DNA from: Lentisphaeria bacterium
GTDB taxonomy: Bacteria > Verrucomicrobiota > Lentisphaeria > Victivallales > UBA1829
DNA: 64,000 bases
Assembly: GCA_017541665.1 (NCBI GenBank)
Contig: JAFXYP010000065.1
Coordinates: forward strand, 39,167-103,166
Direction: 5' to 3'
This document shows positions 36,630-56,264 of this stretch, in pieces. Below the pieces are notes generated by a model, which did not search any database, was not told the DNA's origin, and worked only from the letters and a program-made list of their open reading frames with translations. Numbering within the stretch: position 1 is the first letter of the stretch; each line of letters begins with the position of its first letter. The position numbers and the translations under genes were made by a program.

Positions 36630-36658
36630 GGTATCAGAATATCCTTATCGGCTGGTTG

Positions 36659-38068
36659 TCATTTCTTCGCGAGTTCATCGAATTCGGACATCACGCCGGG
36701 CTCGACGAATTCATTGATCTTGACCGGCACGGCACGCGCGGTCACGAAATAATGCACGGTCTCGGCGTTCGAGGTGGTCGTGCCGAAGATGTACTTCAGA
36801 ACCGGCAGTTCGCAGAGGAACGGGATGCCGATGGTCTGTTCCACGTCGGTCTTGCGGTCCCAGCAGGCGAGGAGTTTTTCCTGGCCGAACGGGAGCGCGA
36901 TGGATCCGGTGACGGTCGTGCCTTCGGAGATCTCCGCGCCCATGTTGTTGCGCTCGACCACATTCGAGCCGGCGAGCTCGTAATCGAACGTCACGCCGCC
37001 ATTCTCGCTCGTGCCCGCGATAGTGGCCTCGGAGATGTTCATCTCAAGCGTGGCGTCGCCTCCGATGTCCACGCTGGAGCGGTGGTCTTCATCCTTCAGG
37101 ATGTTCTGGTATTCGGGCGAGAAGCTGGCCTTGAACTCGGCATCCGGGTTGTTGGAGACCGTGACGCCGGCGGTGCTGTTGATGGTCGCGCGGCCGTTCT
37201 GCTGAAGCAGGCGGATGAAGCTGAAATCGAACGCGGGGGCAGTGTAGAATCCGCCGAATCCGTAGGTGAACGTGCCGAAGAGGTCTGCGCCGGTCTGGGT
37301 AAGGCCGGTGACGATCGTCTCGGCGGCCTTCATGCTCAGCACGTCGTAGGCGGCATTGAAGAGGTTGAGGCCGGGGCCGTTCTTCCACGCCAGGTAGTCC
37401 ACGCCGACGTCGATCAGGTCGCTGTCGCGCACTTCATAGATCTTCAGTTCGATGCTGGTCTGCGGGATCTCCTTGTCCAGCCATTCGAGCTTCGCCTTAA
37501 TATCCGCCACGCGTGCCGGAGTGTCTTTGAAATAGAACATGCCGGTCTTCGGGTCCAGCCTCACGGTGGAGTCCAGCGGACCGCTGGAGATGCCGGTCTC
37601 CTCGATCACTTCGACCATGCTTTCGGCGGAACGGAACTGCGGCTTGTAGGTGCCATAGGCAATGCCGGTGCCGGAGATGATCGTGTCATAGTCGTTCATC
37701 TTGCCGGGCCGGTCAAGCGCTTCGACCATTTCATCGATGTAGGGCATCATGGGGACCGTGGTCGTCACGATCATGATCTGCCGGTTGTTCGCCTTGTCCT
37801 CCATGCAGGACACGCTGGAGTTCTCGTCGAACCGGATCGCGGCGCTCTTTACGAACGGAGCCAGATCGACGGCCTTCGTGTGTTCCAGCACATACGTCTT
37901 GCTGACCATGAGCTTCTGCGCATCGTCCTGCACGAACGTAATGGTCTGCACTTTTTCGTCGGCTTCGATTTCCGCGGTGGTTTCTTCCTCGGGATTCTCC
38001 GCGAATGCGGGGAACAGGACGCCTGCCGCGAGCAGCGCGATCAGGCCGTTTTTTACCTTGGGATTCAT
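36659..38068 (-). CDS. secretin-family outer-membrane channel protein (paralogue 2)
   Basis: Uses internal ATG 38068 (MNPKVKNGLIALLAAGVLFPAFA, a signal peptide), preceded by AAGGAGA, giving 469 aa. It is collinear with paralogue 1 (YKPQFRSAESMVEVIEETG vs YQPKYRSAEELRDMIEAAG; DYLAWKNGPGLNLF vs DFQAWKNNDGIDLF). The C-terminus reads IGIPFLCELPVLKYIFGTTTSNAETVHYFVTARAVPV. The 188 upstream codons of the track ORF look non-coding. Confidence 0.75.
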   Translation of the reverse strand: MNPKVKNGLIALLAAGVLFPAFAENPEEETTAEIEADEKVQTITFVQDDAQKLMVSKTYVLEHTKAVDLAPFVKSAAIRFDENSSVSCMEDKANNRQIMIVTTTVPMMPYIDEMVEALDRPGKMNDYDTIISGTGIAYGTYKPQFRSAESMVEVIEETGISSGPLDSTVRLDPKTGMFYFKDTPARVADIKAKLEWLDKEIPQTSIELKIYEVRDSDLIDVGVDYLAWKNGPGLNLFNAAYDVLSMKAAETIVTGLTQTGADLFGTFTYGFGGFYTAPAFDFSFIRLLQQNGRATINSTAGVTVSNNPDAEFKASFSPEYQNILKDEDHRSSVDIGGDATLEMNISEATIAGTSENGGVTFDYELAGSNVVERNNMGAEISEGTTVTGSIALPFGQEKLLACWDRKTDVEQTIGIPFLCELPVLKYIFGTTTSNAETVHYFVTARAVPVKINEFVEPGVMSEFDELAKK

Positions 38069-38735
38069 TTTGGGGGGATCTCCTTTGGTTTTGGTTGTTT
38101 TTTGCGGGTTGGAATCAGGTTGTTGTTTGTTCGGTTGGTATGTTATTAGGTTAAGACAAGTCATTTCGTCGGTCGGCGCGGCAGGCAGAAAAACGGACGG
38201 AGGCGGAACCGGAGTTCCGGCCCGACACGCGCACGGCGAAACGCCGCCGCCCGCCTTGAGCAAATCCCATGCCAACTGCCATCCGAGGTTCCCGGCACAA
38301 GGTGCGCGTCCGAAAAGCGTAAAGCATGCGGAAGTTTTTTTCACACAGTGAAAACGCGAACGGATACAGTCCACGCCGGCACATCCCTTTTGTCTCCCCG
38401 GCGCAGCTCCCTGCCGCGTCCCGTTTTTTTCCAAACATATATCATTATTTCTCCCGCGCGACTTCATGCCGCGCCCGTCCGTTTTTCCCGTTGCGTTCCG
38501 GGATACCCCGTACAGCTTCATGCCGTAACGCGAAATTTCCGGGTAGTTAGGTTTACCTAACTTTAATGATTTCTGCCGCCCTCCATCCGATTCTGTTTCT
38601 TCGAAGGACGGATGGCGGTTTTTATCCGGCAATTATACTATAGCACACTTTTTCGCCTTGTCAATAAGCCTTGACTAAGTTTTTTGAGAAAAAACAAAAA
38701 ACAGCCCGATTTTTTAGGAATCTGTCACACCCCGC

Positions 38736-38840: not shown

Positions 38841-40556
38841 ATGAATTCGTCCGCATCCGACCAAAGCAGCCCGTCGCCGGGGACCGTCCCGCGAGAATCG
38901 TCCGTTCCGGCATTCGGAGCGTTCGTACGCTTTTTCCTGCGCGCGATCCGACCGTGGCGCTGGGCATACGCGGGCATTTTGGCCGGGGTCCTGTTCGTGA
39001 CCGCCGCCGGGTATGTGCTTCCGATCCTTCAGAAGCGCCTCATCAACGCCATTACGACGCGTGAAGCGGACGGCATCTGGTTTCTCTTCTGCGCCACGGG
39101 CGTGCTGATGCTGCTCGTGCGTGCCGAGGCAATCCTGCGGCAGCGCGTCGTGAACTCCACCGTGCACAAGGTCATGTTCCGCCTGAAGACGCGCATCGCG
39201 AACCGCCTGCTCGACATGCCGCCGGGGCTGCTCGCCCGGCTCGGCGGCGGCTACCTCTCCGACCGCCTCAACAACGATGTCTCCCAGCTCCAGATCTTCT
39301 TTTCCAACACGCTGTTCAACATCCTCGCGAACGTGCTGAAAGTGGCTGGCGGTCTCGTCTTTCTCCTCGTGCTCAGCCCGCGGACCGGGCTCGCCGTGCT
39401 CGTGGTGTTCCCCTGCTATGCGCTATTGCTGTACCGGTTTCGCGGCCGCCACTACGCCGTCTCCCGCGAAATCAGCGAACTCCATGCGCGCAACCGCCGG
39501 ATGCTCGCCTCCTCGCTCGGCAGCATCGACCTGGTGAAGTCGAACGCTGCGGAGGAACGCGTCGGCGGGACCATCCGCACCGGTTTCGCCCGCGAAACGC
39601 TCTTCCGGCTTCAGGCGGTCAGGCTGTCCAACTCTTTCCTCTTCCTCACCGGGCTCATCCCGCTCTTCTGCCAGGGCGTCCTGGCGGCAATCGGCATCCA
39701 CCTCGTGCTGAAGAGACAATGGACGCCCGGCGCACTCTGGGCGCTGAACTGCTACCTCATGAACGTCTTCCGGCCCGCGGGCCAGCTCTGCAGCACATTC
39801 CCGCCCGCCCAGTCCGCGCTCGCCTCGGCCGCCCGCCTCCTCGAGCTCAGGAACCTTACACGCGAACCCCGCCTGGACTCCGGGCTGGACGGCTTCGAAC
39901 TCCATGGCGCGGTCGAACTCCGCGAAATCACGTTCGCCTACCATCCCGGACACATCGTGCTGGACTGCGTCAGCCTCTCGCTCGAACCCGGCGCAAAGCT
40001 CCTGGTCACCGGTCCCTCCGGCTCCGGCAAAAGCACCCTCTTCGCCCTCCTCCTCGGCTTCTACAAGCCCGTTTCCGGCACGATCCTCTTCGACGGACAT
40101 CCCGTCGACGACTACAATATCCGCGCGCTCCGCCGCCAGATCGGTTACCTCGGCCCCTTCCCCGACTTCATCCCCTCCCAGCTCCGCACCAACCTCACGC
40201 TCGGATGCGCCGGCACGCCGTCCGACGACGCCATCTACGACGCGCTCGCAGCCGCCGGAGCAGACGACGTCGTCCGGGCGCTCCCGCATCGCCTCGACAC
40301 CGTGCTTACCGAATCCGTCCGCAATTTCTCCGCCGGCGAACGGCTCCGCTTCGCCCTTGCGCGCGAAATCCTCCGCGACACCCGGATCCTCCTCGTCGAC
40401 GAAGCCACAGCACACCTCGACGCGGACAACGAGACGCGGTTCCTGGAGACCGTCCTCCGCGTCTTCCAAACACGCACCGTGCTCATGATCCGCCACACGC
40501 CGCACCCGCTCACGGACGGCTCCCCCGTGCTCAGGATCGACGCAGCCCGCTCCTGA
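38841..40556 (+). CDS. ABC exporter, fused TMD-NBD half-transporter (MsbA/McjD-size class)
   Basis: ATG 38841 is preferred because the TTG at 38736 coincides with the -35 box, giving 571 aa. The N-terminal half has six hydrophobic helices. Walker A is GPSGSGKST, Walker B is ILLVDEATAHLD and the H-loop is MIRHT. The signature motif is atypical: FSAGERLRFALAR instead of LSGGQ. There is no C39 peptidase domain. Confidence 0.9.
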   Translation: MNSSASDQSSPSPGTVPRESSVPAFGAFVRFFLRAIRPWRWAYAGILAGVLFVTAAGYVLPILQKRLINAITTREADGIWFLFCATGVLMLLVRAEAILRQRVVNSTVHKVMFRLKTRIANRLLDMPPGLLARLGGGYLSDRLNNDVSQLQIFFSNTLFNILANVLKVAGGLVFLLVLSPRTGLAVLVVFPCYALLLYRFRGRHYAVSREISELHARNRRMLASSLGSIDLVKSNAAEERVGGTIRTGFARETLFRLQAVRLSNSFLFLTGLIPLFCQGVLAAIGIHLVLKRQWTPGALWALNCYLMNVFRPAGQLCSTFPPAQSALASAARLLELRNLTREPRLDSGLDGFELHGAVELREITFAYHPGHIVLDCVSLSLEPGAKLLVTGPSGSGKSTLFALLLGFYKPVSGTILFDGHPVDDYNIRALRRQIGYLGPFPDFIPSQLRTNLTLGCAGTPSDDAIYDALAAAGADDVVRALPHRLDTVLTESVRNFSAGERLRFALAREILRDTRILLVDEATAHLDADNETRFLETVLRVFQTRTVLMIRHTPHPLTDGSPVLRIDAARS

Positions 40557-41203
40557 TAAGCACGTATTTCGCATCCGTCTCCTGCCGGAGATCGGCAAGG
40601 CCCGCAGCGTCATGCCCCTGAGAACCGGCCCGCAAGAAAAAAAGCCGGTACGGGATGGTACGCATCAATCCCAAACAGGAAAGGATGGGTTCTTAAACGC
40701 TCCTGTTTTTATATCATAGATTGCTTTATTTCGTCGTATTTATGATGGATTATGCAAAAAAAAAGAGACTATCCCTTCATAAGACACCGACGCGAAAAAA
40801 ACGGAAAAGAGCCATCGTCCTTATCCATTTCCCTTGTTCGTTTCAGATGAAGCAGATACAATGATTCTGCGAGTCTCGAACTGATGCATGTCATGACCGA
40901 CAAAAAACAGGACGATTCGTAAAACGGACAGTTTTGAAAGATCGGCTCGATGACAGGATGCCGTCTCGACTTATCTCCGGTTACGAAAGGGTATCCCGGC
41001 TCGTTTTTTTACCAAGTTTGATTTCTTTTCTTGTCTGTTTCGTGCTTCCGTTTGCGTTATGTTTTTCTTCTTTTGTGCAAAACGGATCGAAAAAGCCGCT
41101 TCCGCTTTTGTAATAATCTATTTTGCATGCGCTTACATTCATTGCTCGGTTTTCTGCCTTGTTTAATAAGCAAAAAAGTCCGATTTTTTTTGCGCTATTT
41201 AAC

Positions 41204-41232
41204 TTGTATTTCGTAAAGACCGGCAGTATATT
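41204..41232 (+). promoter_or_regulatory. candidate sigma70-type promoter (TTGTAT-N17-TATATT) for the giant gene
   Basis: Hexamers at 41204-41209 and 41227-41232 within the 750-bp AT-rich intergenic region. AAGGAGA lies about 10 nt before ATG 41310. Confidence 0.4.
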
Positions 41233-41309
41233 CTTGATATTATTGAATAAAATTAATTTGGCGTATGGTATGCTTTTCTGCGTCGCCCTAACAAGGAGAA
41301 AAAGCGAAA

Positions 41310-44300
41310 ATGCCCAGCGAACCCGCAAAAATCATTTTTGTGAACGCGAACTGGAACAAGAACGATCCGGCGAAGATAAACGAGTACTCGTTAAACGACC
41401 CCACCACGATAACCTGGGGCGGAGTAACGTACAATGTCACCCGCATCGATACTGCCAACAGCGGGGCAAAACCGGCCTACTTCACCGACGACTTGCAGGC
41501 CGCGATCAATTTCGCGAATCCGGAGGGCGGCGACACGATCGTTTTTTACAACGTAAACAGCTTCGCATCCGCCAATAACGGCACAACGATCTCCGACTTC
41601 AAGTTCTACCCACAGGGTGTCATTACGGTCGACAGAAGCGTGACTTTCTGCACCGGGTCCAAAACGAAGTCGAGCGATTCGTATTACGTGGAGAAAACGG
41701 TCAAGCTGGACGGTCTGGTCATTCGTCCCGGCGTCGAAGCCGAATTCCGGCATGGCATCTATTCGCTGGAGGACCAGCTGGACAACAGCGGCATCGTGGA
41801 TATCGGAGACAATACCCGTTTCAACGCGGACATGATCGACAACGAGAACGGCACCTTCCAGATCGACACGAGCTCCCGCCTCGTTGGCGCCGACATCGAA
41901 TCCGGGACGATTGAGCTCAAAACGCCGGGCGAAGGCATTTCGCTCGACACGGCCACGGGAGCGGTGCAGCACGACGAGGCCGTGACGCAGAACCTGAAAC
42001 TTGTCAACCAGATCCTGGAATCGCGGATCTCCGAGAACGTGGCTGTCAAGTTCAGGCATCCCGACGCCGACGGCTTGACGGAAGTCGTCGAGGATGTTCT
42101 GTTCAAGAACGGCGAATTCGAGGATGTCCATGTGGCGGTCAAAAAAGCTGAGGCCGGCGCTGCGCTTCCCCAATACCTCTACTGGGTCGGGACAGCCACT
42201 CCTCCCGACACCTATAACACCACGGATTATGACCTCAGGACTTATCATCTCAGCAGGGAATTCGGCTCCTTCTTCCTGGTCGACGACCAGTTCGACCTGA
42301 AGGAGACCTCGCCTTCCTCCGGCATCTATACGACCAGGACCGTCTACGTGGACCAGCGGTGGGTCGCGGGCAGCGCCACCGGCCCGACGGTCGATCTTGC
42401 CGTGCATTCCAACGAACTGAAGACCGGCATCGAGGATGTTACGGCGAGACTTTCCTATTCCACTTCCAACACCGGGGAGACACAGGTCTACAACTCGTTC
42501 CGGACCGCGTTCAACAGCGACTATGTAACCGCTCATGTCATCGACAGCCAGGACCAGGGCATGGTCATCCGGATCAAAGGCAATTCGGCCGATTCTGCCG
42601 AAGCGATGGTCTACTACGAAAACAGTTCGACTTTGAACGCCTCGGCAACCCTGTACAAGCAGGACATCCTGGTGGAACCGGACAAATACTGGGGCATCGA
42701 CGAGGAGACTGGCGAGGAGACATGGATCTACGACAAGGTCAGTTTGAACTTGGGTGGATACTCCGTCGCTTCGACTCCGAACCTGCTCACGTTCGCCCAT
42801 CTGGAAAGCATGACGATCAAGACCTGGATCATAGGCGGCGCCTCGGGCGAGAACGGCGTCGTGAACTTCGTCGACATCGACGACATGAAGATCATAGATC
42901 CTGCGGCGACTTCCGGCAATGCGGCGAGATTGAAGATCCAGGGCGGCGCCACAGGGCGCATCGTCAATACAAACCTCACCGTCGGCGGAAGCCAGGACTT
43001 TTACGGGCATCTCTCCATCACCGGCGGCACGCTCATCCTCGAAAACTCCACCGTGACCTTTGACACCAAGGGCTCCGACAACGGCGTGCTTTCCACGGAG
43101 AACAACGCCCTGGGATCCGGCTCGGTGATCGTCCGCAATTCCAAATTCATCGTCAAGAACAGCGACGTCGGCATCAGGGCCACCTCGGTCAACCTGAAGA
43201 TCAACTCCGAATTCATCATTTCCGGCGAATGCACGGTGAACGGCGTTTTTCACGAACCTGGCGGACGACAGCGCCACACGGATCACGTTCCAGGATGCCG
43301 TCCTCGGCGCCGACACGCTCATTCAGAAGAGCACCGCTACCAACCGCGGCGCACGGCTTCATTTCGAGGGAAACAACACCCTGAACGGTTCGACCGTGGA
43401 ACAGGGCGGCACGCGCGGCCTGCTCGTGGAAGCGGACGCCACGCTGGACCTGAACGGAGCCTCCGTGTCCGTGTCCGGCGGCACCGCCGTCAACAACGGC
43501 ATCGTCACCCTGACAGACTCCTCCGTTTCCGCAAAGGAATTCCAGAACGCGGCCCACTCCTCGCTCACCGTGGATGCCGGGTCCACGATCCAAACGAACA
43601 AACTGGTCAACTCCGATGACGCCACGATCACGCTGGAACTCGATTCCCTCGGCCACGTCCCGGTGACGAGGCTTTCCGGATCGGGGGCCGTCGACGTCGT
43701 TAACAACGGCACGATCGTCCTGGACGCCAGCTCCATGGACTACTCCCCCACCCCGGTCGTCGTCATGAACCTCTCCGGGAACGGCGATGTCATCCTCAAG
43801 TCGAATGTCGGCGGCAACAGCGTTGATGTTGCCAACGGAACCGTTTCCATTTCCATGGGCGAACCGGACCGCACCGTGCTGTATGTCGACGGCGACTGGA
43901 GCGATTCCACGCTCTATCCGAAATGCAAGAACGTCGGGCCGTTCACCTACATCGGATACAATGCGTTCTACAACAATCCCGACGGCGAAGACATCAGGAC
44001 TCTGTCTTTCAGTGCGAAATCCCCGACTTCGGAGATCGTTTTTTACGCCAACGGGGACGGGCGCTATGAATCTCTGGACCTCGGGTCTTTGGACAATGCC
44101 CCGTTAGGCGGACTCACGATCACGACGCGCGGCAAGATCAACAAGACTTCGCCGCAGGTCTCCATGAAGGCGCTGACCGTCGGGAACGACACGGCCGGGT
44201 CCGAACGCCCCCAGGGAGTTACGCTTTCCGGCGCGGCGATGGACTTTCAGGACGACGGCGGCACGAAATCCATCACGGTTTCGGCGCACGGCACGCTGAT

Positions 44301-47300
44301 GGTCGAGACCGGCGAAAGCGCGAAACTGGTCCTGCCTGTGGCGCAGACCTCGCTCGACCGCGTGGTCCAGGTCAAGATCTTCAATCCGTCCAATCCCGAC
44401 GAAGCCGAGTATTATTCCGCCCGCGTGAAGGCCGGCGACCTGTTCGTCGAGCTTCCGTCCAGCGCGTTTTCCGTGGGATCGCAGTACAACGTGCAGATCA
44501 CGGACCAGTGCATTTACCAGGCACTCTATCAGAACACCACCAGTACCGAGCTTGCCGTTTCCGTGGCTCTGGCGCTGGTCCAGAGGGAATCCAGGCAGGT
44601 CGACGTCTCCATCGCCGCCCTGGAGCAGAAAAATGACGAAAACGTCGTTTATCTGTTCAGGAACCAGCCGGTCACGCCGACCCAGACTCAGCTCAAACTG
44701 AAAGGCGTGGATCTGGCGGACGGGTTCACCACATCCGTGGACCTGACGCTGGACGACGGGACCGGTGCGGGCACCGCGACCGTCACGTACAGCGCTGCGA
44801 CCGGCCAGCTGACTTTGAGCGGGATCGCCGACGCCAACGACAAGAAAAAAGTGACAGCGACGATCGACCTGGACAGCACCCACTCCATTCTCTATACGTT
44901 CAAGTATTCCAAGACCGCAACGACCCCCTACAGTGTCTTCCCGCAGTTCGTCGAAAACGCCTTCTACTCCGTGAAGGTAACGGAAAAGCCGACTCTGGGA
45001 ACCGCCGTGGTCGACGGCGTGGCAGACTCCTCGATCACCGCCCAGGGCATTGCGAACTCCGGTAAGCTGAGAGTCGCCTCCGAACACGAGACGAGGTCCC
45101 TGACGGTCTCCGGCTTGACATCGGATCCTCTCTACGACCGCACCGCCACCGTGCATGTCACGCACAAAACGGGCGATGCAACCGACTTCGACCGGACGTA
45201 CCTCGTGAACCTCCCGAAGGGAAGCGACAGCATGACGTTCTCCTCCAACGACCTCACGGACGATACGACGTATACCGTGGACGTGTCGTTCGCCTCGGAG
45301 AAGACGGATGTGAACAGTTTTTCCCTCAATAGCATCACCGGGATTCTGACGCTTTCCGACCTTGGCTCGTCCTCGTCCCTCCGTCCTGCCACGGTCTATG
45401 TCACGCACAACAGTACGGTTGAAGCCTTCTACGTCGAAATTCCGGCTGACGCAACCGGCGTGGATGTCCCGGGCACGTTCTCGAACGTCGAGGCGGTTTC
45501 CATCGCCTACAGCACCAGAAGCAGCGGCTCGGTGAACACCATGATCCGCAAGGCCGCCAAGCTGGACCTGACGGTCGAGGCAAAGGATTTCGACCGCGAC
45601 ATCACGGCAGTCATCGACTGCGACGGCCTTGCGCCGGACAACAGCCAGTCGAAGAGCGGCGAAGCGGATGCAGGCGCCGCGCTGTGGCTGGACTTCAATT
45701 CCGAGGGCACGAGCTCGACCGACCACACTTATACGGTCGAAGTCCGGGATTTCTCCGGTATGCTGGTCTATACGAAGGACATGGTCCTGAATTCCGGCAC
45801 CCCCAAATACAAGATCGCCTCCAGCATGTTCAAGGCAGGCACGGACTATACCGTGTACGTGAAAGACGGCGATGACCGGATCAGCGACCAGGTCAGAAGG
45901 ACGGAGATGTCCGAATCCATGGAAACGACGAAGCTGACCTTCGACGTGGCGCCCGGCGCATCCCGCATTCTGAACGTGACGGTGGCCGGATCTTTCGCAG
46001 GCGATGCCGCCGCCTCCACCCGGACCTATCAGGTGGAGGTCGAATCCGGCGCGGAAACGGCGTCCATCATTTCCGATGAACTGACGGCGTCGGCATACGA
46101 CGTTTCGATCCGAAAGGCCGTTTACTCCGTCTTCGTCGCACAGGGGACCACAACGGGGACCATCTCCTCCAACGCGTTCGCGGTCGGGGCGCATTATGAC
46201 GTGTCCATCACGGACGGCGAGACGGAGATCCCCAAACAGGAATACATCGCGAAGACGCTCTCCACGCTGACCGCCACCGATGTCGTGAACAGCAACGACA
46301 TCGAGGTCGACAACGCCGACTTCATCGCCGATTCGGTCGTGAACGACGGGACGTTCACCGTCTCCGGCTACAGCAGGCTGGATATCGATGCGCTCAGCGG
46401 GACCGCAGCCGTTTCCGTTGCGGATAACGGCACCCTGCATGACTCCACCGTCACCGGCGGCGCCATCGCCGCGGCGGGCAATATGGGGTTTGCCGGGGAC
46501 AACGCCATGACCGGCGTCGCGATCACGGTCTCCGCCGGCGCCCTGTCGAACACCGGAACGCTCGCGCTCAATACGGACTCGACGCTCACCGTGAGGGACG
46601 ACGTCACGAATACCGGGACGATCTCCTACAAGTTCGTGAACGGCACGCCTTCCGACCAGGTCTTCCAGGTCACCGGCTCAGGCATGGGTGTCATCAATGA
46701 AGGCGGCACGATCCTGATCGACGCCTCCGCGTATACCGGATCCGAAGATAAGCAGGTCACGGACTTCTCCGTCACCGGCGGCAATGTCCGGGCAGTCAAT
46801 CTACCCACCATTCCCGGGAGAACGGTCGTCGCGGTCCGCAAGACGGCCAGTGAAGTCGCCGATACGGTCTGGCTCATCGCGCTGGAAGCCGAAACGGCCA
46901 CGCTGTACGTGGACAACATGCAGTCCTGGGAAACCGCTCCCGAAGGCACTGCGATTCCCGGGACTTCCGAGCCGATTCTGTACTACAAGGTCAACGCCTT
47001 TGTCAATTCCTCCGACACGGTGAACGGGATCGTGTCCGACACCTCGGCCATTTCCCTGGCAGGCGGAAACACGACAGGCTACGGTGCGCTCGACCTGTCC
47101 GGCGCGGACAAGCTGACCGGAACCCGGGAAACGGTCACGATCGAGGTCACCGGCACGAATGCGGCCGACATCGGTTCCCTGACGACCGGCGAAAGCAAGG
47201 TCGAGGTCGTGACTTCCGGGGACCTGAATGTGAACGGCGCGGTCACGAACAACGGCACGCTCACGCAGAGCACGGGCGCGATGGACGTCACTTCGGCGTT

Positions 47301-50300
47301 CACGAACTCCGGCAGCTTCACGCAGGCCGCGGGCTCCATGAACGCGGCCTCCCTTGCGAACAATGCCGGTTCCACCATGACGCTCAACGGCACGATGACC
47401 GTGGCCGGAGAGGTCACGAACTCCGGCAGCTTCACGCAGGCTGCCGGCTCCATGAGCGCCGCTTCGCTCACAAACAACGCCGGCGGCACGATCACGGTCG
47501 GCTCGGGCGAGCTGTCGACTGCCGGCGCGATCACCGTGTCCGGCGCGGTCACGAACAGCGGCTCGATCACGCTCGGCTCCGGTTCGTCGTTCAAGATCGG
47601 GACCGAGACTCCCGATCCGTCGTATTCCTTTACCGGGAGCCCGCTCACGAACAATGCCGGCGGCACGATCACGATTGACGCGTCTTCCTCGCTGCGGGCA
47701 GGAGCTGTCCGGAACAAGGGCGACATCGCCTATTCGTATGCCGCGCTCACGGACGATCCGACGACCGCGTACGGCCAGAGATTCTCGGCTTCTTCCGTCA
47801 ACAACTCCGGCGGCACGATCACGATCGACATTTCCGGCGCGGTTTTCACAAATGACATCAAGGAACTGCAGGTCACGAATTTCGGCGTCACCGGCGGCGA
47901 AATCGAACTGACCGGGACCCCGACTCTCGTTGGTTTCTCCGGTTCCATCCTGGCCGTCCGCAGAACGACCGACAATGTCGCCAACACGATCTGGCTCGTC
48001 GCGTCTCCCGCCAACACGAATGTGCTGTACGTAGACAACTCGGAGTCCTGGGAGAACACGCCGGAGGGCGGCTATATCGCAGGCTCTTCCAGCCCGGATA
48101 AGTATTACAAGGTCAACGCCTTTATCAATGCCCCGGACGCGACGGACGGAATCCTTTCCAACACCTCGACGATCTCCATGGCGGGAGTCAACGGCTCTGG
48201 AGTGAGTTACGGCGCGCTTGACCTGTCCGGCGTAAGCAAGGTGACGGGCACGCGGGAAACGTTCACCCTCAAGATCACCAATTCCACGGCCAAGGTCGAT
48301 TCCCTGACGACCGGCGGCGAAGGCAAGGTGGCCGTGATCATCTCGGGGAGCCTGAACGCGCTCGGAGAGGTCAAAAACGGCAACAACGGCACACTTACGC
48401 AAAGCACCGGAACCATGACCGCCGCCGTGCTGACGAACAATACCGGCGGAACGATGACGCTCAACAAAAATGTGACCGTGACCAATGCCATCACGAACTC
48501 CGGCACATTTGAACATACAAGCGGCTATATCCGAGCAGTCGGCGCCGCGATCACGAACTTCGGCGAGTTCCGGCATTCGGGAACGGGTGCGAACTATGTC
48601 TCCGCCACGATGCTGACGAACGCCGCGGTCGCAGGCACCATGACGCTCGACTGCGCAGTCGTCAGAGTGGCTAACGAGATCACGAATTCCGGCACTTTGT
48701 TCGAGCATGCCACGACGGTCGCCGGCAACTCCGCGACGGTTTTCTCCGCCGCGACGCTGATGAACGCGGCCGGGACCATGAAACTCCATGCCGCCACGGT
48801 CACGGTCGGCGGAAACCTCACGAACGACGCGCCCGACAGCGCACCCGAAAGCGCTTCGTTCATCTGGGACCCCAACCCCAGCGTAGGGGATACCACCAGC
48901 AGTGTTTCTCCACGGCTTTCCGCCAAGAATCTCCTGAACACGAATCCGGGCGGGACCATGCAGCTCAACGGCGCAGTCACCGTGACCGAAACGCTCACGA
49001 ACTCCGGCACGATCCATCATGCCTCGGATGTGATGTCCGCCAAGAACATTACGAATGAAGCCGGCTCCATTACGTTTGGCGGCACGGCCGTTCGCACCAC
49101 CGGCACCATCACAAACCGCGCCACCATGACGCAGATCAACGGCGGTTCGCTCCACGCCGCCGTTCTCAGAAACGACAAGACCGGCGCCGTTTTCACGAAG
49201 AACGGCGGCTATCTGAACGTCAACACGCTTACGGCCGGGTCCTCCGCCACGATGACGCTCTACCTCGACGACGACACGGCGGATCATACGGGAGAAACCG
49301 CGGGTGCCCACAGCGTCGTCTCCTCCGCCTTTACCAATGGAAACAGCAACCAGTTCGATCTGAAATCCGGCACGCTCGTCGTTCTGCCCGCGAACGGCAT
49401 AATCAATTCCGGCACGATCCATGTGGGCGGGGACGGCGACGAAGCCGTGCTCATCGCCAAAAAGCTCGACATGTCCGAGTCCGGAACAACCCGGGGCTCT
49501 CTGTACGTGGAGGACGGAGGCGTGCTTCAGATCACCGACGGCAACCACACCGGTCTTCTGGGCATCAACGACGGCAGCAGCTCCCGCAAAATCGTGGTCA
49601 GCGGCGGAACGATCCTCGCGGACGTGATCAAAACGAAAGGGACCAGCGATTCGAACGATGCCGGGAAGCTTTTCATCCAGGGCGAGTCGACGGTCGCGGC
49701 GGACTCCTACACCGGGAACGGCTGGATCGTGCTCGACGCCGCCACGCTGAACAAGGACACGAAGATCGTATTCGACGTATCCAATAAAAAGCTTGTGGTC
49801 AGGAATGCAAATACCGTGGTCGGGTCGAACATCTCGGTCAATGCGATGGACGTGAAGTCCGGCGGCTCTCTGACGATCTCCAACGATGTCGTCAATGAAA
49901 CCCCGGTCGGCGACTTTACCGTTAAAAACATCACGAACAACGGCACGATCCGAGTCGGCAACGTAGTCGGCGGCGGCGGAAATGCGAAACGCGGAACCGT
50001 GAACCTCGGCGTGAACGACGGGACCGGCGAGGTCACAAACAACGGCACGATCTCGGTCGAAGTCGGGTCCACGGTGCTCACGGACAAGATCTCCGGCGGC
50101 ACGATCGACATCCGGACAACGGGGCTTTCCCTGACGGAGGACCTTTATGTCCTGGTCAAGGGCGCGCTTGACGGCGAAAACACCCCGACGCTGACCGTCA
50201 ATGGCGGCAGCACTCCTCCGGAAGGCTATTCGGTCCAGACATTCGGCAACAAGGGCGTGTTCCTGGCCAGGACGAATCCGACGGTGCTGTATGTGAACAA

Positions 50301-53300
50301 CGCCTATGCGGGCGCCGTCGGGGACGAGACCGACGACGGCCATCTGATCGGTTACAACGCGTTCACGGACAATCCCGACAGCGAGGTCGACACGACTCTT
50401 GCATTCGCCGCGGACGCGTCGAATACGACGGTGAGCTATGCAGCATCCGCGACAACGTATTCGGCTGTGAATTTCGGGACGACAGCCAACGCCCCGGCGA
50501 ACCTCACGGTCACGACGTCCGGCTCCGGTCCGGTCGCCATGAATCCGCTGACCGTCGGAAACGGCAGCTCGGGTCAGGCCGTCACGCTCTCCGGCGCAGA
50601 CCTAACCCTGGCCGACGCAGTCGAGCCCGCGACCGCCTCCCTCACGGTGTCGGGCGACAGCACGCTGTACATCGGCGGCGCATCCGCATCCGCGGTCACG
50701 GCGGAAACTGTGGCCAACAACGGCTCGATCGTGATCGCATCCGGGTCCGAGCTTGAAGCCGGCGCCGTGACGAACACGGATGGCGGGATCGCGGTCAACG
50801 GAACGCTGGCCGCGGCCGGCATCACGGGCGGTGCGGTTTCGGTCTCGAACAAGCTGACTGTCACCAGCAGCATTTCCAATGTTGCGCTCACGGTGAGTGC
50901 ACCCGGCGCAACGGATCCCGGCGATGTCGCGGTAACGGCGGAAAACATCATCAGCAGCACCATAGCGCTGTCGATTACCGCGGAATCTCTTAGCGGGAAC
51001 GCGGATTCGTACCAGTATATCGCAGCCGGCCTCAGCAATGTTTCGTTCACGGTCAACGGCGGCTCCGATTCTGTGGGAGAGCTTGATGAAGTAATGCCGG
51101 GCTATCTCTTCACGACGAAGGGGGACACGGGCGCATGGCTGGTGAAAGCCCAGTCCCGCGAAACGCTTTATGTAGACAGTTCGTATACTGCGAACGGCGC
51201 CAACGACGGTCTCATCTACGGCTGGAACGCGTTCAGCGACCTGGCGGATGCGCTTTCGGCCGCGACCTCCGAGACCACCACGATCACAATCGAATCCGAC
51301 TCGGAAGCAACCGACGTCAAGAATGTATACAAGGCTTTCGAGAATGCTTCGGTCACGATCGAAACGATCAACGGCGCACAGACAGCCACACTCATTTTTG
51401 CGATAGGGAAAGACCTCGCCCTGACGCCGAAAGACGGCGGCAGCCTCACGATTGCCGAAGACACCACGATTTCGACAGTCGGCGACAAGAGCAGCGCCTA
51501 CATCGTCCTGAACTACGGCCGCACCAGCGGCACGGTCACGGTCAACGGCACGCTTGAATCCTCCACGGAAATCGCGCTCTGGGGCATGACCACGGTCGGG
51601 ACGACCGGCTCGCTCATCGCGGACGACGACGGCATCATCCTCTTCCGTTCCGGCTATGCCGCGGCGGCAAACGACGCCTACACAACCGGTTACGCCGTAA
51701 CGATCGGCAAACTTGGAGAAGAAGAGAAGCCGGAGATCAAAGCCACATGGTTCGACCTTGCTTCCGGCGTTGTAAATGTCAACAATGCCACAGTCACAGC
51801 AGAGAAGTTCCTTTACAGCCAGAATATGGGCGGAAACGGCGCATATGATCCTTCCGTGGAGGAATTTGCCGTAACAGACACGATTCACAAGGCGATCCTG
51901 AATTCCCAAGGCTCCACTTGGAAGATCGGAGATTTCGAGGCCGACGGCACCGGCGACAGGACTGACGGCACGAAGAACTACATCACGCAGAACGGCGAGT
52001 TCAACTTCGCCGGAAGCCGGATCGACGTATCCTCGAACGCCAGCTTCGGCAACAAGATCGAGCTGAACCTGTCCAACTCCGTTATGGACATCGACGGCGA
52101 TCTGGAGAACGCCGGCGCCATCAACCTGACCGACTCCGCGATGCAGATCGATGGCAGCCTTGAGAACGCCGGAACGATCCGGATCGAAAAGAATACGGCG
52201 ACCGACGGGTCCGTGTTCAGCGTCGCCGGAAATGCCCTGAACCGTGAAGGCGCGCTCATTTCCATCAATGGTTCGCAGTTCAATGCGAACGGAACAGAAG
52301 AAAGCACTCTCACGAACAACGGCACGATCGAAGTCTCCGGCAGAAGCCTTCTGGTCATCGACACGCTCACCGGCAACGCCATCGAGCTGCTGGACGGCGC
52401 GATCATCAACGCCACCATCCAAAGCGGCGGCAAGCTGAACGTGGGAACACACCTTGTCGAGGAAACCCCTGTCGGAAACAGCGTCATCTTCTCCGGGACG
52501 AACGACATGGCGTCCACCGACATCGACAATGCCGGGACCATCACGGTCTACAATACGCTGTCCGGCGGTGCGATCGACAACGACGGCACCATCACCGTGA
52601 ACGGCACGCTGTCCGCAACGGGCGCGATCGACAACGCCGGCGGCACGATCACCGTGAACGGCACGCTGTCCGCAACGGGCGCGATCGACAACGACGGCGG
52701 CACGATCCTCGTCAACAGCATTGGGGCAACGCCCGCCATCACGGCGACGGGCATTGACAACACTTCCGGTACGATCACGATCGACGCAACCGGATTCAGC
52801 ACCGGCACGCTGAAGGTCATCGACGTCGCCGGCAAGACCGGCCTCAACGTTGCGGACATCATTCTGACGCACGCCGAAGATGGCGTCCGCCTGGTGCAGG
52901 CGTCGGACGGCGATATCCTCATCACGAACCAGGATCAGGCGGTCCTGTATGTGAAGAGCACCTATTCCCCGACCGGCGAGAACGACGGCCACATCTACGG
53001 CTACAACGCGTTCAGCAGTTTCCAGGCCGCAATGGACGCCGCGGCCCCGCGCACGGAGGCAACGACGATCACGGTCCTGAACGCCGTCACGGAAGAATAC
53101 GACAACGACCTGATGGAAGGATTCGGCGGCAATGTGACCGTCAACGGATCGGGCTCCGTCACGCTCGCAAACACCGCCGCCGGCAGAATGGATCTCTGCA
53201 TCTCGCCCGCATCGGGAACGACGTTCACGATCACGGCCCCGATCACGATGGCCGGCGCGACATACTATGTGGAAACGGAACCCGCCACGCGGCCTGCCGG

Positions 53301-56103
53301 CATCTGGCTCAATTACACGGGCCCCGGCTCGACCGTCGTTTCGAGCGCGATCGATTCCGAGACGTTCATCGGCATCAACGGCACGGTCGGCGTCGACAAG
53401 GACGGATCGCTCGAGACGGACGGCGACATCCAGGTCGGGCGCGCCCGCGATGCCATGGCGACCGCTCTGACGATCGCCGGCACGGGCAGAGCCAATCCCG
53501 CCGCCAATCAGGTGTCCGCAAAGGGCCTTCAGCTTTCGGAAGGCACGATGACGACGACGAACACGAAGATCAAGGCGGATTATCTGTCGTATACGGATAC
53601 GGAGAACTTCGATACACGCTCGGAGGATTTCTCCGCTCCGTTCGTACTGAACTCCACCGGCACCGAGTGGACGCTCAAGGGAATGAAAGTGGCGTTCTAC
53701 TCGACGCCCGGCACAAAGATCAGGAGCACCGCAACCGCCACGCTCAACTTCACGAACAGCGTGGTGTATGTCGACGGGAACGTGATCAACGCGGCGTACA
53801 GGACGACGGACGGACAGAATGCCGTTTCGTATCTTGCGGACGCCCCGGCGATGACGATCAACCTGACCGGCTCCGCGATGCATATCACCGGCGGCATGGA
53901 GAACGCCGGTGCGATCACGCTGGCAAAAGACTCATCGGACCATGTCTCCGTGCTCACGGTCGCCGGCGCCATCACGAACGAAGCCGGCGGCGCCATCAAC
54001 ATTACCGGCAGCACCCTGACCGCGAATGCTGCCATCACGAACGAAGCCGGCGCGGCCATCGCCCTGACCGGCTCCACGCTGACCGCCGCGACATCCAAAG
54101 TAACAAACAACGGTACGTTCAGCGTCTCCGGCGAAAGCACGCTCGACATCGGCGAACTCGACGGCACGATCACGGTCGAGGCCGGAGCCACGCTGGCGGG
54201 GTCCAATATCGCAGGCGCCGCGCCGACCGTATCCGTCTCCGCGGATCCCGAACCCGCCGAATCTCCCCTCACGGTGGTCATCGAGACCAAAGGCATCATC
54301 CATGCCGAGGGCGACCTGAACTTCACCGGCAACAATGCGCTGACGGACATCACGCTCGATGCCGTGGGAGAGATCACGACCGACGGCACGCTCACGATCA
54401 ACGCCTATTCGATGATTACGGCCGACAGCATCAGCTTCTCCGGCGACGGCGAGGTCTTCGTGGATGCGACGGGCTTCGATCTCGCCGACGTCGGCGGAAT
54501 GAAGAAGGTCATTCAGCTAAATGCCGATTCGGAGCCGATCCCGACGTCGAAATATTCGACGACTGCAGGATTCGACCTGATCTACAACGCCGGGGAATCC
54601 GCCTACTATCTGGTCGACGCGCCAAACAACATCATCTATGTTGAGAAAGACTGGACCGCGAGCGATTACGGAACCGAAGTCGACCCCCAGAAGTATTATG
54701 GATACAATGCGGCCAACAATGTCAACGCCGCTGTCGACATCGCCGTTCAGGTCAGGAGCGAGACGCCTTCGGCCACGCCTGAAATCGTCGTGTATGAGGG
54801 CGCGTACTCCGGAGTCATCCAGCTGAAGGGCATATCCACCACGATCCTGAAAAACCAGGATGAACAGGCGCCCCATGGCACGTCCTTCTCCAGCGCCATT
54901 TACGGTGGAGAAAAGACCAGCACGGGCACGACCGGCGCCGGGATCACGGCAGGCAACAGCATTACCGTCGAAACCGGGAATTTCAGCAAATTCGTCGTCG
55001 GCGGCAGCAACATCGACATGGTAAACACGGAAGACGCGTCCAAGAACAAAGACGTGCAGTATGTCATCAACGGGACGCTGGACACCGAAACGAACCGCAC
55101 CGTCGCCCACACGTTCACGATCACCGGCGGCGTATTCAATACCGGAATCGTCGCAGGCGGCGACAGATTCGTGACCGGCGATTTCTCGTTGAACGGCGAC
55201 ATCAACATGTTCATCGATGGCGGCAGTTTCAATTACGCCGTCGCGGGCGGCCTGCTGAATTCGACCGGATCGACGGGAAAAGGAAAGGCTGTCGTCAACG
55301 GCAATGTCAATCTGACCATCACGGGCGGTTCCTTCGGAGACAACTGCTGGATCTACGGCGGCTGCATTTCCACCCAAAAGGACCAGGACATCAACGCTCA
55401 GACCGAAATCCACGGGGATGTGACGATCACGGTCGACAGTTCCTCCGGGAACACGATCAATCTCAGCAAGATGGTCGTCGGCTCCCACGGCTGGGGAAAG
55501 ATCGTCCGTGAGAACGAGGACGACCCGCTGGGCAACACGAAACTGGTCTTCACCGGCGACGGAAGCAAGATCACATTCAATTCCAATGCCCATATCTGGG
55601 GCGGCTGCAGCGGGGACGACTTCGACTCCGAGACATTTGCGGTGGACGCCACCTCTGTCGACAGTCGCAGGATCCTGTCGTTCACGGACTTCAGCGGCCC
55701 GCTCAACTGCAAAATGATCCGGGGCTTCAGCGACATCCAGTGCATCCGCAGCGTCGTGACGCTGAAGGAAGACGGCGTCTACAACTTCTCCGACATCGGC
55801 AACTGGGAATTCGTCTATGCCGAAAAAGCCGACGAATCCCTGGCGGATTTCACGGGCAGCTTCCTCAACGATTTCTCCGGCGACACCCTCCGGCTTGACC
55901 TGGGTGACTGGGACGGTTCGAGCGCATGGACGATCCTTGAAAACACCGCCGAAAGCGGCGCGTTCACCGGGTTCGGCGACATGGATGTCCGGATCGGAGA
56001 TAACACCCTGAATTGGGATTCGGGCAACGGCTTCTATTCCGGCGGCGGCTATACGCTCGCGCTGGACGACACGGAAACGAAGATGGTCCTTACCCTGGCA
56101 TGA
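41310..56103 (+). CDS. giant modular beta-helix-like repeat protein (~4,930 aa if the frameshift at 43246-43251 is bridged); annotated in two ORFs here
   Basis: ORF 41310-43619 reads as plausible protein only up to ...SGECTVNGVF (43250) and is then Arg-rich nonsense. The frame of ORF 43396-56103 is open from 43240 and reads TNLADDSATRITFQDAVLGADTLIQ... well before its first ATG. Eight super-modules each begin with an x(L/I)(Y/F)V cap followed by a YG(Y/W)NAF-type motif, at 41310, 43873, 46897, 48019, 50281, 51160, 52939 and 54628. The interior is Thr/Gly/Asn/Ser/Val-rich with 19-residue periodicity. There is no N-terminal signal peptide, RTX repeat or beta-barrel. Confidence 0.85.
43240..43251 (+). 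other. frameshift site at a T5 homopolymer inside the giant gene
   Basis: Frame-0 codons are GGC GTT TTT CAC and frame+1 codons are GCG TTT TTC ACG. Removing one T from T5 (43246-43250) yields the continuous ...ECTVNGVFTNLADDSATRITF.... The frame+1 stop TGA at 43237-43239 sets the lower bound of the switch window. Confidence 0.8.
52591..52693 (+). repeat. perfect 46-nt direct repeat at 57-nt (19-codon) period inside the giant gene
   Basis: ATCACCGTGAACGGCACGCTGTCCGCAACGGGCGCGATCGACAACG occurs at 52591-52636 and again at 52648-52693. It encodes (G)GTITVNGTLSATGAIDN(A/D) twice. Confidence 0.9.
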
Positions 56104-56264
56104 GCGAAATGAACAACAGCCCGAAAAAGGTTTTATGCTATATGAAAGAGACGGAAACGAAACGGAAAGAACCCTACGAAACTCCTGCCGTCCTTGATAT
56201 CAAACCCGTAACGGTTTGCTGCGGCGGTTTGTCGGACGGAGGATACGACGATGATGAGGGATGA
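56100..56264 (+). CDS. candidate small precursor peptide (54 aa; alternative 40-aa form from ATG 56142)
   Basis: ATG 56100 overlaps the giant gene stop (ATGA). The sequence is MSEMNNSPKKVLCYMKETETKRKEPYETPAVLDIKPVTVCCGGLSDGGYDDDEG, with a Lys/Glu-rich leader-like part and a C-terminal CCGG plus acidic tail. It sits directly upstream of kinase, PqqD and peptidase genes. There is no clear SD, so it rests on context. Confidence 0.4.
   Translation: MSEMNNSPKKVLCYMKETETKRKEPYETPAVLDIKPVTVCCGGLSDGGYDDDEG

Follow-up and report, generated by a model that had tools for sequence, protein, structure and literature searches.

A frameshifted giant gene in a Lentisphaeria bacterium: a predicted chain of capped beta-helix units with a conserved C-terminal module

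Results

The giant gene and its surroundings

We report on a giant gene and its neighbours in the window, i.e. the whole stretch of 64,000 nucleotides analysed (Lentisphaeria bacterium, assembly GCA_017541665.1, contig JAFXYP010000065.1). The gene is present as two open reading frames (ORFs) in different frames, 41310-43619 (769 aa) and 43396-56103 (4,235 aa), the latter annotated at NCBI as a hypothetical protein of 4,235 aa (MBR4254846.1). The features are as follows (positions in the window, strand, description):

38841..40556, +, half-size ABC exporter (571 aa) sharing 77% identity with its counterpart at the orthologous locus L001
41310..43249, +, opening frame of the giant gene (aa 1-647); in P0046 the protein continues without a break
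43246..43250, +, T5 homopolymer at which the frame shifts (T4 in the intact allele, GGCGTTTTCACG)
43251..56103, +, giant gene after the T5 run, +1 frame (aa 648-4930 and stop)
43876..46899, +, module 2 (aa 856-1863): cap, beta-sandwich-like repeats, beta-helix tail, closing element
46900..48021, +, module 3 (aa 1864-2237), sharing 49% identity with the beginning of module 4
48022..50283, +, module 4 (aa 2238-2991)
50284..51162, +, module 5 (aa 2992-3284), smallest of the units, with 37% identity between its cap and the module 2 cap
51163..52941, +, module 6 (aa 3285-3877), AF2-predicted cap and three-stranded beta-helix
52942..54630, +, module 7 (aa 3878-4440), paralogue of module 6 (~30% identity)
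54631..56100, +, module 8, the family-wide C-terminal module: cap, GG-rich beta-helix, all-beta end domain
56100..56264, +, small peptide gene, 54 aa, its ATG overlapping the stop codon of the giant gene (ATGA)
56298..57170, +, ScmC/HprK-like P-loop protein, 290 aa
57167..57427, +, PqqD-family peptide chaperone (RiPP recognition element)
57434..58045, +, S26-like (signal peptidase I-like) protein, 203 aa (TIGR02228, E 1.4e-6, below the curated cut-off)
58145..61102, +, 985-aa protein with AIDA-type strand-loop-strand repeats and C-terminal RTX nonapeptide repeats

A single-nucleotide insertion divides the gene

An earlier note on this DNA described a giant protein of about 4,930 aa; in the window the two ORFs are separated by the T5 run, and bridging them requires that one T is dropped from 43246-43250. 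Upstream of the run (aa 1-647) lie most of module 1 and two cap-like elements, one at the N-terminus (aa 8, nt 41331) and a degenerate one at aa 344 (nt 42339). Because the T5 lesion recurs in at least five independent assemblies, in addition to the NCBI metagenome-assembled genome (MAG), it is genuine and not a read error; the split product is present on at least six contigs. The insertion is specific to one lineage, and a sister strain with T4 carries an intact ORF of exactly 4,930 aa. The T4 and T5 alleles show 26 synonymous and 20 non-synonymous codon differences and no other lesions, numbers that are consistent with purifying selection, i.e. recent or continuing constraint. From the T5 allele the full-length giant protein may not be made.

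Caps and modules

In the bridged translation the paired cap motif reads [LIVT][LIV]YV[DNKE] followed, 15-30 residues on, by Y[GK][YWV]NA[FA]. Seven strong copies are located at aa 856, 1864, 2238, 2992, 3285, 3878 and 4441 (nt 43873-54628 in the earlier note), and the strict paired form has five matches compared to none in 2,000 shuffles. [quoted passage not shown] Moreover, an HMM built on the junctions detects the same element in independent relatives (E 1e-9 to 1e-15). The recurrence that had been noticed earlier thus holds, as do the closing motif, (W/Y/F)L(V/I), which sits 5-8 residues ahead of the cap strand, the unequal module sizes (293-1,008 aa) and a composition rich in Thr, Gly, Ala, Ser, Val and Asn. 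The protein is acidic (pI 4.3), approximately 510 kDa and poor in Cys (12 in 4,930 aa).

The interiors of the modules differ. Module 2 includes about seven beta-sandwich-like repeats ending in Y-x-V-x-(V/I) (~aa 1010-1650, nt 44338-46260), while the identity between module 3 and the start of module 4 indicates an internal duplication. In module 6 a 57-bp tandem repeat, corresponding to a 19-aa coil (52522-52707), differs in copy number between alleles. In aligned units of the module-6 type the invariant columns hold G, N, F, L, I, W, S, A or V, and none of Asp, Glu, Lys, Arg and His is conserved; this lack of conserved charged residues argues for a structural rather than a catalytic role. Module 8 combines a GG-rich beta-helix (ITGGxF...AGG, WIYGGC, VVGSHGWG) with an all-beta end domain of ~150 aa, which begins at ~nt 55648 and terminates in ...KMVLTLA.

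Predicted fold

AlphaFold (AF2) models were generated for two modules from shallow alignments (8 and 12 rows). For aa 3200-3699 (module 6; pLDDT 77.9, pTM 0.79) a strand (LYVD), a loop, a helix (SDLADAL) and a strand are predicted, followed by three-stranded coils of ~20 residues; the C-terminal module (pTM 0.80) is mostly at pLDDT 80-95 over residues 150-551, and confidence is low for the closing element and for the module 8 cap. Foldseek ranked right-handed beta-helices almost exclusively at the top (Ag43, UpaB, Hap, Hbp, pertactin, tailspikes and pectin enzymes), with scores short of significance (best E 0.012, TM 0.13-0.34), and searches of Pfam, NCBIfam, PHROGs and PDB sequences with the giant protein gave no match. 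The profile searches recommended beforehand were negative in Pfam and NCBIfam, while the structure search gave weak beta-helix matches, and the assignment of the fold therefore rests on the AF2 models. The models, together with relatives that begin with the motif, suggest that each motif opens a separate capped beta-helix unit, as had been proposed.

Relatives and the C-terminal module

Among 1.84 billion representative proteins, searched exhaustively, 27 relatives were identified, and all those named are from Lentisphaeria. Many comprise 2,500-4,300 aa with two to seven caps. Where complete, they start with a cap at residue 3-8, MA-x-(I/L)-Y-V-N..W, without an h-region (maximum 12-residue hydropathy 0.4), and neither a signal peptide nor a TM segment was found at the N-termini examined. 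The number of modules varies from two to at least seven across the relatives, and at the orthologous locus (L001) a 931-aa protein has two modules vs eight to nine in the window.

The last module was previously counted as merely one more unit. It is the conserved, portable C-terminal module of the family, in which G, F, W, S and D occupy invariant positions and the tail is hydrophobic, and in L007 it is fused to a passenger consisting of PPC and Peptidase_C11 domains. Since this family-wide module is also attached to a C11 protease, we consider it a candidate export or anchor domain that was overlooked before.

Conserved neighbours and secretion signals

No recognisable secretion signal (signal peptide, RTX repeat, barrel or known sorting tag) is present in the giant protein or its relatives, in agreement with the earlier note, and RTX or HemolysinCabind repeats were not detected in the giant protein. 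Directly after the gene for the C-terminal module, a gene for a 40-56-aa peptide with a conserved leader was present in 19 of the 19 loci examined; in the window this is the 54-aa peptide (leader KEPYETPAVLDIKPVT, acidic G/D-rich tail). The HprK-like, PqqD and S26-like genes and the AIDA/RTX protein often come next, the S26-like gene being conserved in L001, L025 and L027. The 985-aa AIDA/RTX protein lacks a signal peptide and is a conserved downstream partner of the C-module gene.

The ABC exporter flanks the peptide cassette in three lineages (window, L001/L037 and L027) and is absent from L024 and L025 and upstream of P0009 and P0022. TAP, MsbA, bacteriocin and T1SS models match it equally well, with all scores far under the respective cut-offs, including every T1SS cut-off of NCBIfam. 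No membrane-fusion (HlyD-like) gene was found beside it in any locus read, nor does a TolC-like gene lie near it. Among the export candidates named previously, the secretins are found again on contigs from the species of the window but not beside relatives. The ABC exporter and the S26 peptidase are indeed neighbours, but gene context places the latter in the conserved small-peptide/HprK-like/PqqD cassette, and the former appears to fit a peptide exporter better than an exporter of the giant protein.

Discussion

As a whole, our data are best explained by a giant extracellular protein, fibre- or adhesin-like and belonging to a rare, undescribed family, that is built as a chain of capped beta-helices, is exported or retained through the C-terminal module and is frameshifted in this genome; we put the probability of this reading at roughly 0.55. 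The giant protein would consist of self-contained right-handed beta-helix units joined head to tail. Each opens with a cap, in which a predicted beta-strand, (L/I)YV(D/N), and a loop lead via Y-G-x-N-A-F into an alpha-helix and a further beta-strand, and continues into a predicted beta-helix body of highly variable length, whose uniform 19-21-residue coils grow or shrink by tandem duplication. It ends with a closing element of 60-80 residues (GTITIDATGF...K-V-I-D...(W/Y)-L-V), a linker of only 5-8 residues leading to the next cap. Such units behave as evolutionary cassettes that are duplicated and shuffled, with two to nine per protein. The last, distinct unit, able to bear other cargo such as the C11 protease, would direct Sec-independent export or surface retention, the likeliest known route being a type-I-like ABC pathway common to the giant and the adjacent RTX protein. 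The small leader-bearing peptide, presumably co-translated, would be a required partner.

Whether the units are separate can be questioned, since the linkers are so short and since closing element and next cap are conserved jointly as one junction profile; the "caps" would then be internal connectors for the coaxial stacking of successive helices in one continuous rod. We consider this less likely than separate units, as the same motif is the free N-terminus in the complete relatives read, module number and order vary freely, and the AF2 helix is predicted to cover the first coil as it does in beta-helix domains that stand alone, with the junction not confidently modelled. It is far less probable that the modules are enzymes, i.e. 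that each capped beta-helix is a lyase or hydrolase of the pectin-lyase fold in a multi-catalytic polysaccharide depolymerase. Beta-helices capped in this way are characteristic of pectate lyases, GH28 enzymes and alginate lyases, all among the Foldseek matches, the host lineage is rumen saccharolytic, and the C-module of one relative matches the Cthe_2159 carbohydrate-binding beta-helix family (E 3e-5); however, no module has a CAZyme-type Pfam or NCBIfam match, the module-6-type alignment is devoid of conserved charged residues, and many modules consist of near-pure uniform coils.

That the insertion abolishes the full-length product, leaving an inactivated pseudogene in this genome, is a tentative alternative to which we give somewhat less than an even chance. 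In a clonal lineage (the assemblies and the MAG above) T5 has become fixed, and it is limited to one near-identical clade, T4 alleles differ by 0.35%, and classical phase variation needs a longer tract than T4/T5. Yet the 12.5-kb downstream frame is free of further stops or frameshifts, the codon differences fit recent or continuing constraint, and the downstream ORF, which still includes the C-terminal module, has internal starts at 43396 and 43570, at either of which translation could begin; a proposed +1 slippage, in which tRNA-Phe moves from UUU to UUC at GUU-UUU-C, would also recover exactly the wild-type NGVFTNL. With respect to export, a classical type I substrate of the adjacent ABC protein, with membrane-fusion and outer-membrane partners encoded elsewhere, would account for the missing signal peptide, the acidic pI, the scarcity of Cys, the conserved extreme C-terminus and the ABC gene directly upstream in the three lineages, and the RTX protein often nearby implies that a T1SS should exist in the organism. 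We nevertheless regard it as unlikely: the giant lacks RTX-type repeats, no HlyD-like gene adjoins the ABC gene, the gene is missing at two loci, its model matches do not discriminate, and it adjoins a peptide/HprK-like/PqqD/NTP-transferase cassette of a kind that has its own peptide exporter (PMC8498205).

Compared with known systems, the giant protein resembles the autotransporter passengers (AIDA-I, Ag43, pertactin, Hap, Hbp and chlamydial Pmps), which likewise form long, adhesin-like right-handed three-stranded beta-helices rich in Gly, Asn and Thr and provide the top Foldseek matches. It differs in having neither a Sec signal peptide nor a C-terminal 12-stranded barrel (Pfam AIDA, Pertactin, Chlam_PMP and Autotransporter gave no match), and many capped helices in series instead of one. 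Chlamydial Pmps come from the same PVC superphylum, and we take the GG-x-F type repeats of the C-module to be reminiscent of their GGA(I/L/V) and FxxN motifs. With the giant type I adhesins (LapA, SiiE and MpIBP) it shares a size of ~0.5 MDa, acidity, few Cys, the absence of an N-terminal signal, a conserved C-terminal region and a repetitive modular stalk with strain-variable repeat number, whereas the stalk is a predicted beta-helix vs Ig-like or BIg domains, without RTX repeats or an adjacent ABC-MFP-OMP operon. TpsA/filamentous haemagglutinin and CdiA also form very long beta-helical fibres; unlike these, the giant has no TPS domain or signal peptide, no TpsB gene was recognised among the annotated neighbours, and its most conserved part is the C-terminus rather than a variable toxin. 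The cap and the ~20-residue coils recall capped pectin-lyase-fold domains (Pfam Beta_helix/Pec_lyase clan), whose common cap, IYV..G..PF-x-TIQ-x-A-helix..GDTI-x-V, has the same supersecondary start, and one relative matches Cthe_2159. However, no profile match to the window protein or conserved catalytic residues are seen, and the giant strings together eight to nine such domains that each have a closing element of their own.

Finally, the neighbouring genes, and only these, resemble lasso-peptide tailoring cassettes (HPr-kinase homologue, nucleotidyltransferase, PqqD RRE and ABC exporter): they encode a leader-bearing peptide (Y-x-x-P-x-hydrophobic motif), a PqqD-family chaperone and an HprK-like P-loop protein, in several loci with NTP_transf_5 and an ABC exporter (PMC8498205). 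Unlike those, they include an S26-like peptidase instead of a lasso cyclase or B2 protease, the peptide cores have no terminal Ser, and the cassette is invariably tied to the gene for the giant protein.

The giant gene and its neighbours

The giant gene and the genes next to it in the window are as follows:
38841-40556, half-size ABC exporter gene, upstream of the giant gene
41310-56103, plus strand, giant gene
52522-52707, 57-bp tandem repeat within the giant gene, one unit of which encodes one 19-aa beta-helix coil; the copy number varies between alleles
56100-56264, gene for a 54-aa peptide lacking Pfam and NCBIfam matches; its ATG overlaps the stop codon of the giant gene
56298-57170, HprK-like/ScmC gene
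57167-57427, gene for a PqqD-family chaperone
57434-58045, gene for an S26-like protein
58145-61102, gene for a 985-aa protein with AIDA-type and RTX repeats and no signal peptide

Reading frame of the giant gene

Within 41310-56103 the window DNA carries two long plus-strand open reading frames (ORFs) that do not share a frame: one of 769 aa at 41310-43619 and one of 4,235 aa at 43396-56103. Frame 1 is protein-like as far as ...SGECTVNGVF and gives Arg-rich out-of-frame text thereafter, frame 2 turns readable from ...FTNLADDSATRITFQDAVLGADTL, and the switch was located to a run of five T residues (T5) at 43246-43250. Deleting one T from this run results in a single uninterrupted protein of 4,930 aa (510 kDa, pI 4.3, 12 Cys), which is used for residue numbering below. 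The giant protein of about 4,930 aa described from the sequence alone in an earlier note thus stands as a bridged reading, but the window itself encodes two ORFs split at T5.

A sequencing error as the source of T5 is excluded by its identical presence in five independent assemblies (ERZ27256870, ERZ27256878, ERZ28653687, ERZ28653672 and Logan SRR31077517), which all have GGCGTTTTTCACG and match the window at 99.96-100% identity across 14 kb. Moreover, the exact 769-aa split product is recorded on at least six contigs, and the second ORF is present at NCBI as MBR4254846.1 ('hypothetical protein IKQ16_07130 [Lentisphaeria bacterium]', 4,235 aa). The sister strain ERZ28653451 (locus L023; 99.65% identity) has four T residues (GGCGTTTTCACG; T4) and an intact 4,930-aa ORF, the junction of which, ..NGVFTNLADD.., is exactly that of the bridged window translation. 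A second intact allele encodes 4,911 aa, i.e. one 19-aa coil fewer, and two more distantly related proteins, P0009 and P0011, read uninterrupted across the frameshift point. Between the T4 and T5 alleles 46 codons differ, 26 of them synonymously and 20 non-synonymously, with no further stop codon or frameshift. Because the sister strain and the relatives read through, and because these codon changes come with no other lesion, T5 is a recent, lineage-specific mutation within an otherwise constrained gene. Rapid phase variation is unlikely; since T5 is restricted to a single near-clonal background, we read it as a fixed lesion. The downstream frame (4,177-4,235 aa) could be translated if ribosomes initiated internally, or if they slipped by +1 on GUU-UUU-C, a shift that would regain the wild-type sequence. 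The deposited 4,235-aa hypothetical protein is accordingly better read as part of a frameshifted 4,930-aa gene.

Cap motifs, modules and predicted fold

Searching the bridged translation for a paired motif, (L/I/V/T)(L/I)YV(D/N/K/E) followed after 15-30 residues by Y(G/K)(Y/W/V)NA(F/A), identified copies at aa 856, 1864, 2238, 2992, 3285, 3878 and 4441, and a strict form of the motif matched five times in the giant and never in 2,000 shuffles. The N-terminal copy at aa 8 is a weaker version, while a ninth copy at aa 344 is degenerate and carries an insertion, and is kept in P0009 and P0011. An alignment of the junctions shows a conserved closing element, G-GTITIDATGF...K-V-I-D...G-Y/F..L...(W/Y)-L-V, separated from the next cap strand by only 5-8 residues. 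Self-comparison indicates that the modules are paralogous, with 49% identity between modules 3 and 4 and about 30% between modules 6 and 7; for modules 2 and 5, identity between the caps is 37%. The recurrent module boundaries and the closing motif before the caps proposed in the earlier note were therefore borne out, and its eight caps correspond to seven strong copies and the weaker one at aa 8, although the degenerate ninth must be added.

Module 2 also contains about seven beta-sandwich-like repeats, each terminating in Y-x-V-x-(V/I). The number of 19-aa coils varies in T4 and T5 backgrounds alike (4,930 versus 4,911 aa and 4,177 versus 4,158 aa, respectively). An alignment of module-6-type units showed zero invariant charged residues, which argues against catalysis by these units.

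Module 6 and its preceding junction (aa 3200-3699) were modelled with AF2 using a shallow alignment of 12 rows, giving a pLDDT of 77.9 and a pTM of 0.79. The modelled cap (pLDDT 60-87) consists of a strand at 86-89 (LYVD), a helix at 112-118 (SDLADAL) and a strand at 125-128, and in the body short-strand triplets at 363/371/378, 384/392/399 and 404/411/418 onward recur about every 20 residues (pLDDT about 90). The C-terminal module (C-module; module 8, aa 4441-4930), modelled from a shallow 8-row alignment (pTM 0.80), has an all-beta body (residues 150-551, mostly pLDDT 80-95) with an all-beta end domain of ~150 residues and a cap at low confidence. Both models show the stacked three-strand coils of about 20-25 residues per turn typical of right-handed parallel beta-helices, and in that of module 6 an N-terminal amphipathic helix covers the first coil. 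No Foldseek match in the PDB was significant (best E 0.012, TM 0.13-0.34), and the top-ranked ones were nearly all right-handed beta-helices, i.e. Ag43, UpaB, Hap, Hbp, pertactin, tailspikes and pectin and alginate enzymes. When the giant and its modules were compared by sequence and by profile with Pfam, NCBIfam, PHROGs and the PDB, no credible match emerged, only chance-level profile matches (Tail_tube, E 0.008; CutC, E 0.02), and the beta-helix-type families named in the earlier note as worth searching matched no part of the giant credibly. The interpretation as capped beta-helix units is thus supported by the models and the sequence pattern, but not by significant fold or profile matches.

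A small family with a conserved C-terminal module

The family was counted by searching 1.84 billion representative proteins exhaustively with HMMER, using modules 6-7 as query. In word-index searches, for which the frameshift region and a C-module profile served as queries, low-complexity words dominated and the yield was nil or only 6 hits. Only 27 relatives were found, many of 2,500-4,300 aa; those with names belong to Lentisphaeria or Victivallaceae MAGs, and the record titles and sample names of several indicate the ruminant gut. The number of caps detected by a junction HMM ranges between two and seven per protein, and together with the two modules at the orthologous locus L001 (see below) this shows that module number varies, a point that the earlier note had proposed to check among orthologues. 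In the complete relatives that were read, the cap begins at residue 3-8 without a signal peptide (MAKLYVNSEW, MATIYVNSVW, MSTLYVNSAW, MATIFVNPGW and MAATTYLYARADW). The family is unseen by every profile library tried, and our literature searches found no description of it.

Most relatives terminate in a C-module in which certain G, F, W, S and D residues are invariant and the tail is hydrophobic, e.g. MVLTLA, MILTLA or MTLTLA. Module 8 is thus not the ordinary eighth unit it was first taken for. At locus L007 the C-module is fused to a PPC domain and a Peptidase_C11 passenger, and it is therefore portable; of all parts of the protein it is the strongest candidate for a domain that directs export or anchoring. 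No similarity was found between the C-module and the RTX neighbour. Two relatives (P0019 and P0025) have FG-GAP repeats in place of the usual C-module and end in ...IC, so that the family has two types of C-terminus.

The peptide gene and the surrounding locus

The peptide gene comes directly after the C-module gene in 19/19 distinct loci with downstream sequence (the window, 56100-56264; L001, 12824-12949; L025, 20600-20770; and 16 more), one of which has the C11 protease as cargo. The N-terminal part of the peptide is conserved, MK..TK.KE.YE(A/T)P.V(L)DI.PVT(V/I), and its acidic tail is variable. In the window the HprK-like/ScmC, PqqD, S26-like and RTX genes follow in this order. Among the lineages of the 19 loci an HprK-like gene is located downstream in nine, and in a tenth (L027) upstream of the C-module gene; PqqD, S26-like, NTP_transf_5 and GT2 genes are present in several relatives' loci, and an AIDA/RTX gene also lies 3' of the C-module gene in most.

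The genes at 56298-58045 resemble a RiPP cassette that has neither a cyclase nor a radical-SAM enzyme, and the cassette of relatives also includes NTP_transf_5 and GT2 genes (L001, L006, L025 and L027). Leader-bearing lasso precursors can be tailored by HPr-kinase homologues and nucleotidyltransferases (PMC8498205). A leader-like peptide and PqqD would fit a lasso-type RiPP cluster, but the Asn-synthetase-like lasso cyclase and the B2 protease are absent from every locus read.

Comparing the region starting with the ABC exporter gene at 38841-40556 with L001 (5021-6727 for the exporter gene), the flanking genes share 64-88% identity (77% for the ABC exporter, 88% for PqqD). The beta-helix protein of L001 has 931 aa and two modules, versus 4,930 aa and 8-9 modules in the window, and these conserved flanks around genes of such different size suggest that the giant gene occupies a hypervariable cassette site. 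The gap upstream of the giant gene (40557-41309; 750 bp) is part of a 2-kb stretch of lower GC content (0.54); a scan of it revealed no sigma-70-like promoter, terminator or Rfam match, and Rfam gave nothing in the entire window. Further upstream, the stretch 30001-32000 (GC 0.51 versus about 0.62 around it), which includes a 378-aa ORF (30334-31470) without a family match, may be foreign DNA. MoxR-type AAA ATPase, DUF58, BatA-like and VWA-domain genes at 16893-29974 constitute a Bat/aerotolerance-type operon interspersed with several large ORFs without a Pfam match.

The 985-aa neighbour has eight strand-loop-strand repeats in addition to its RTX repeats. In AIDA-I and TibA, strand-loop-strand repeats of this kind are O-heptosylated. 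A TibC-like heptosyltransferase gene (TibC_1st and GT9) is present at 5239-6726, 50 kb upstream, and together with the AIDA-type and RTX repeats it suggests that the neighbour is a glycosylated, type-I-secreted adhesin.

Export and comparison with known systems

As noted earlier, the giant carries no recognisable secretion signal: no segment reaches the hydrophobicity of a signal peptide or membrane helix, and HemolysinCabind, Autotransporter, Por_Secre_tail and Haemagg_act gave no match. Autotransporters have a Sec signal peptide and a C-terminal beta-barrel translocator; the giant has neither an h-region nor an Autotransporter match, and ends in an all-beta domain of about 150 aa. Type IX cargo carries a signal peptide and a Por_Secre_tail domain, which matched neither the giant nor 17 C-modules. 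In TpsA, CdiA and polymorphic toxins an N-terminal TPS domain is combined with a variable C-terminal toxin; here the C-terminus is the family's most conserved region. These three types were rejected. The two tandem secretin genes (34833-38632, minus strand, and 32090-34429), situated beside feoAB and divergent from the ABC exporter gene, had been put forward as candidates; their recurrence is limited to contigs of the window's own species, no neighbourhood of another relative has them, and export through them is not supported.

The giant resembles type I substrates in lacking an N-terminal signal peptide and in being acidic and Cys-poor. RTX repeats (GGxGxDxUx) occur only in the neighbour at 58145-61102, and the ABC exporter gene stands alone: HlyD and OEP families were not detected among the scanned window ORFs or relatives' loci, with no membrane-fusion gene adjacent anywhere. 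The ABC exporter, also proposed earlier together with the S26 peptidase, flanks the cassette in three lineages (the window, L001/L037 and L027) and is absent upstream of P0009 and P0022, and both genes fit the peptide cassette better than export of the giant protein. A type-I-like ABC pathway would nevertheless be the likeliest among known routes, because the adjacent RTX protein needs one.

Taken together, the giant is, as observed and modelled here, a chain of capped, closed beta-helix cassettes that has a portable conserved C-module, lacks a Sec signal and is obligatorily accompanied by the neighbouring peptide gene. We propose that it forms a fibre outside the cell or on its surface, where it would serve for adhesion or structure; if beta-helical throughout, the fibre would measure on the order of 100 nm. 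Export would follow a Sec-independent route in which the C-module is recognised. We consider it possible, with a probability of roughly one in five, that the C-module, the leader-bearing acidic peptide, the HprK-like, PqqD, S26-like and NTP-transferase genes and the ABC exporter form an undescribed Sec-independent system in Lentisphaeria that exports, matures or surface-attaches very large cargo (beta-helix fibres, proteases); the peptide, putatively translationally coupled to the giant gene in the window, would then be an obligatory cargo partner and not an independent natural product. The partnership between the two genes may reflect a system for export or maturation that has yet to be described. 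Protein secretion is poorly understood in the PVC superphylum, and with no recognisable export signal and a portable C-module tied to the peptide gene in all 19 loci, this family offers a concrete candidate for a route of export or attachment that is uncharacterised there. While beta-helical surface proteins of giant size are well known, it is unusual that between two and nine individually capped and closed beta-helix cassettes are arranged in series, duplicating and shuffling, which makes the chain a natural system for how beta-solenoids end and concatenate.
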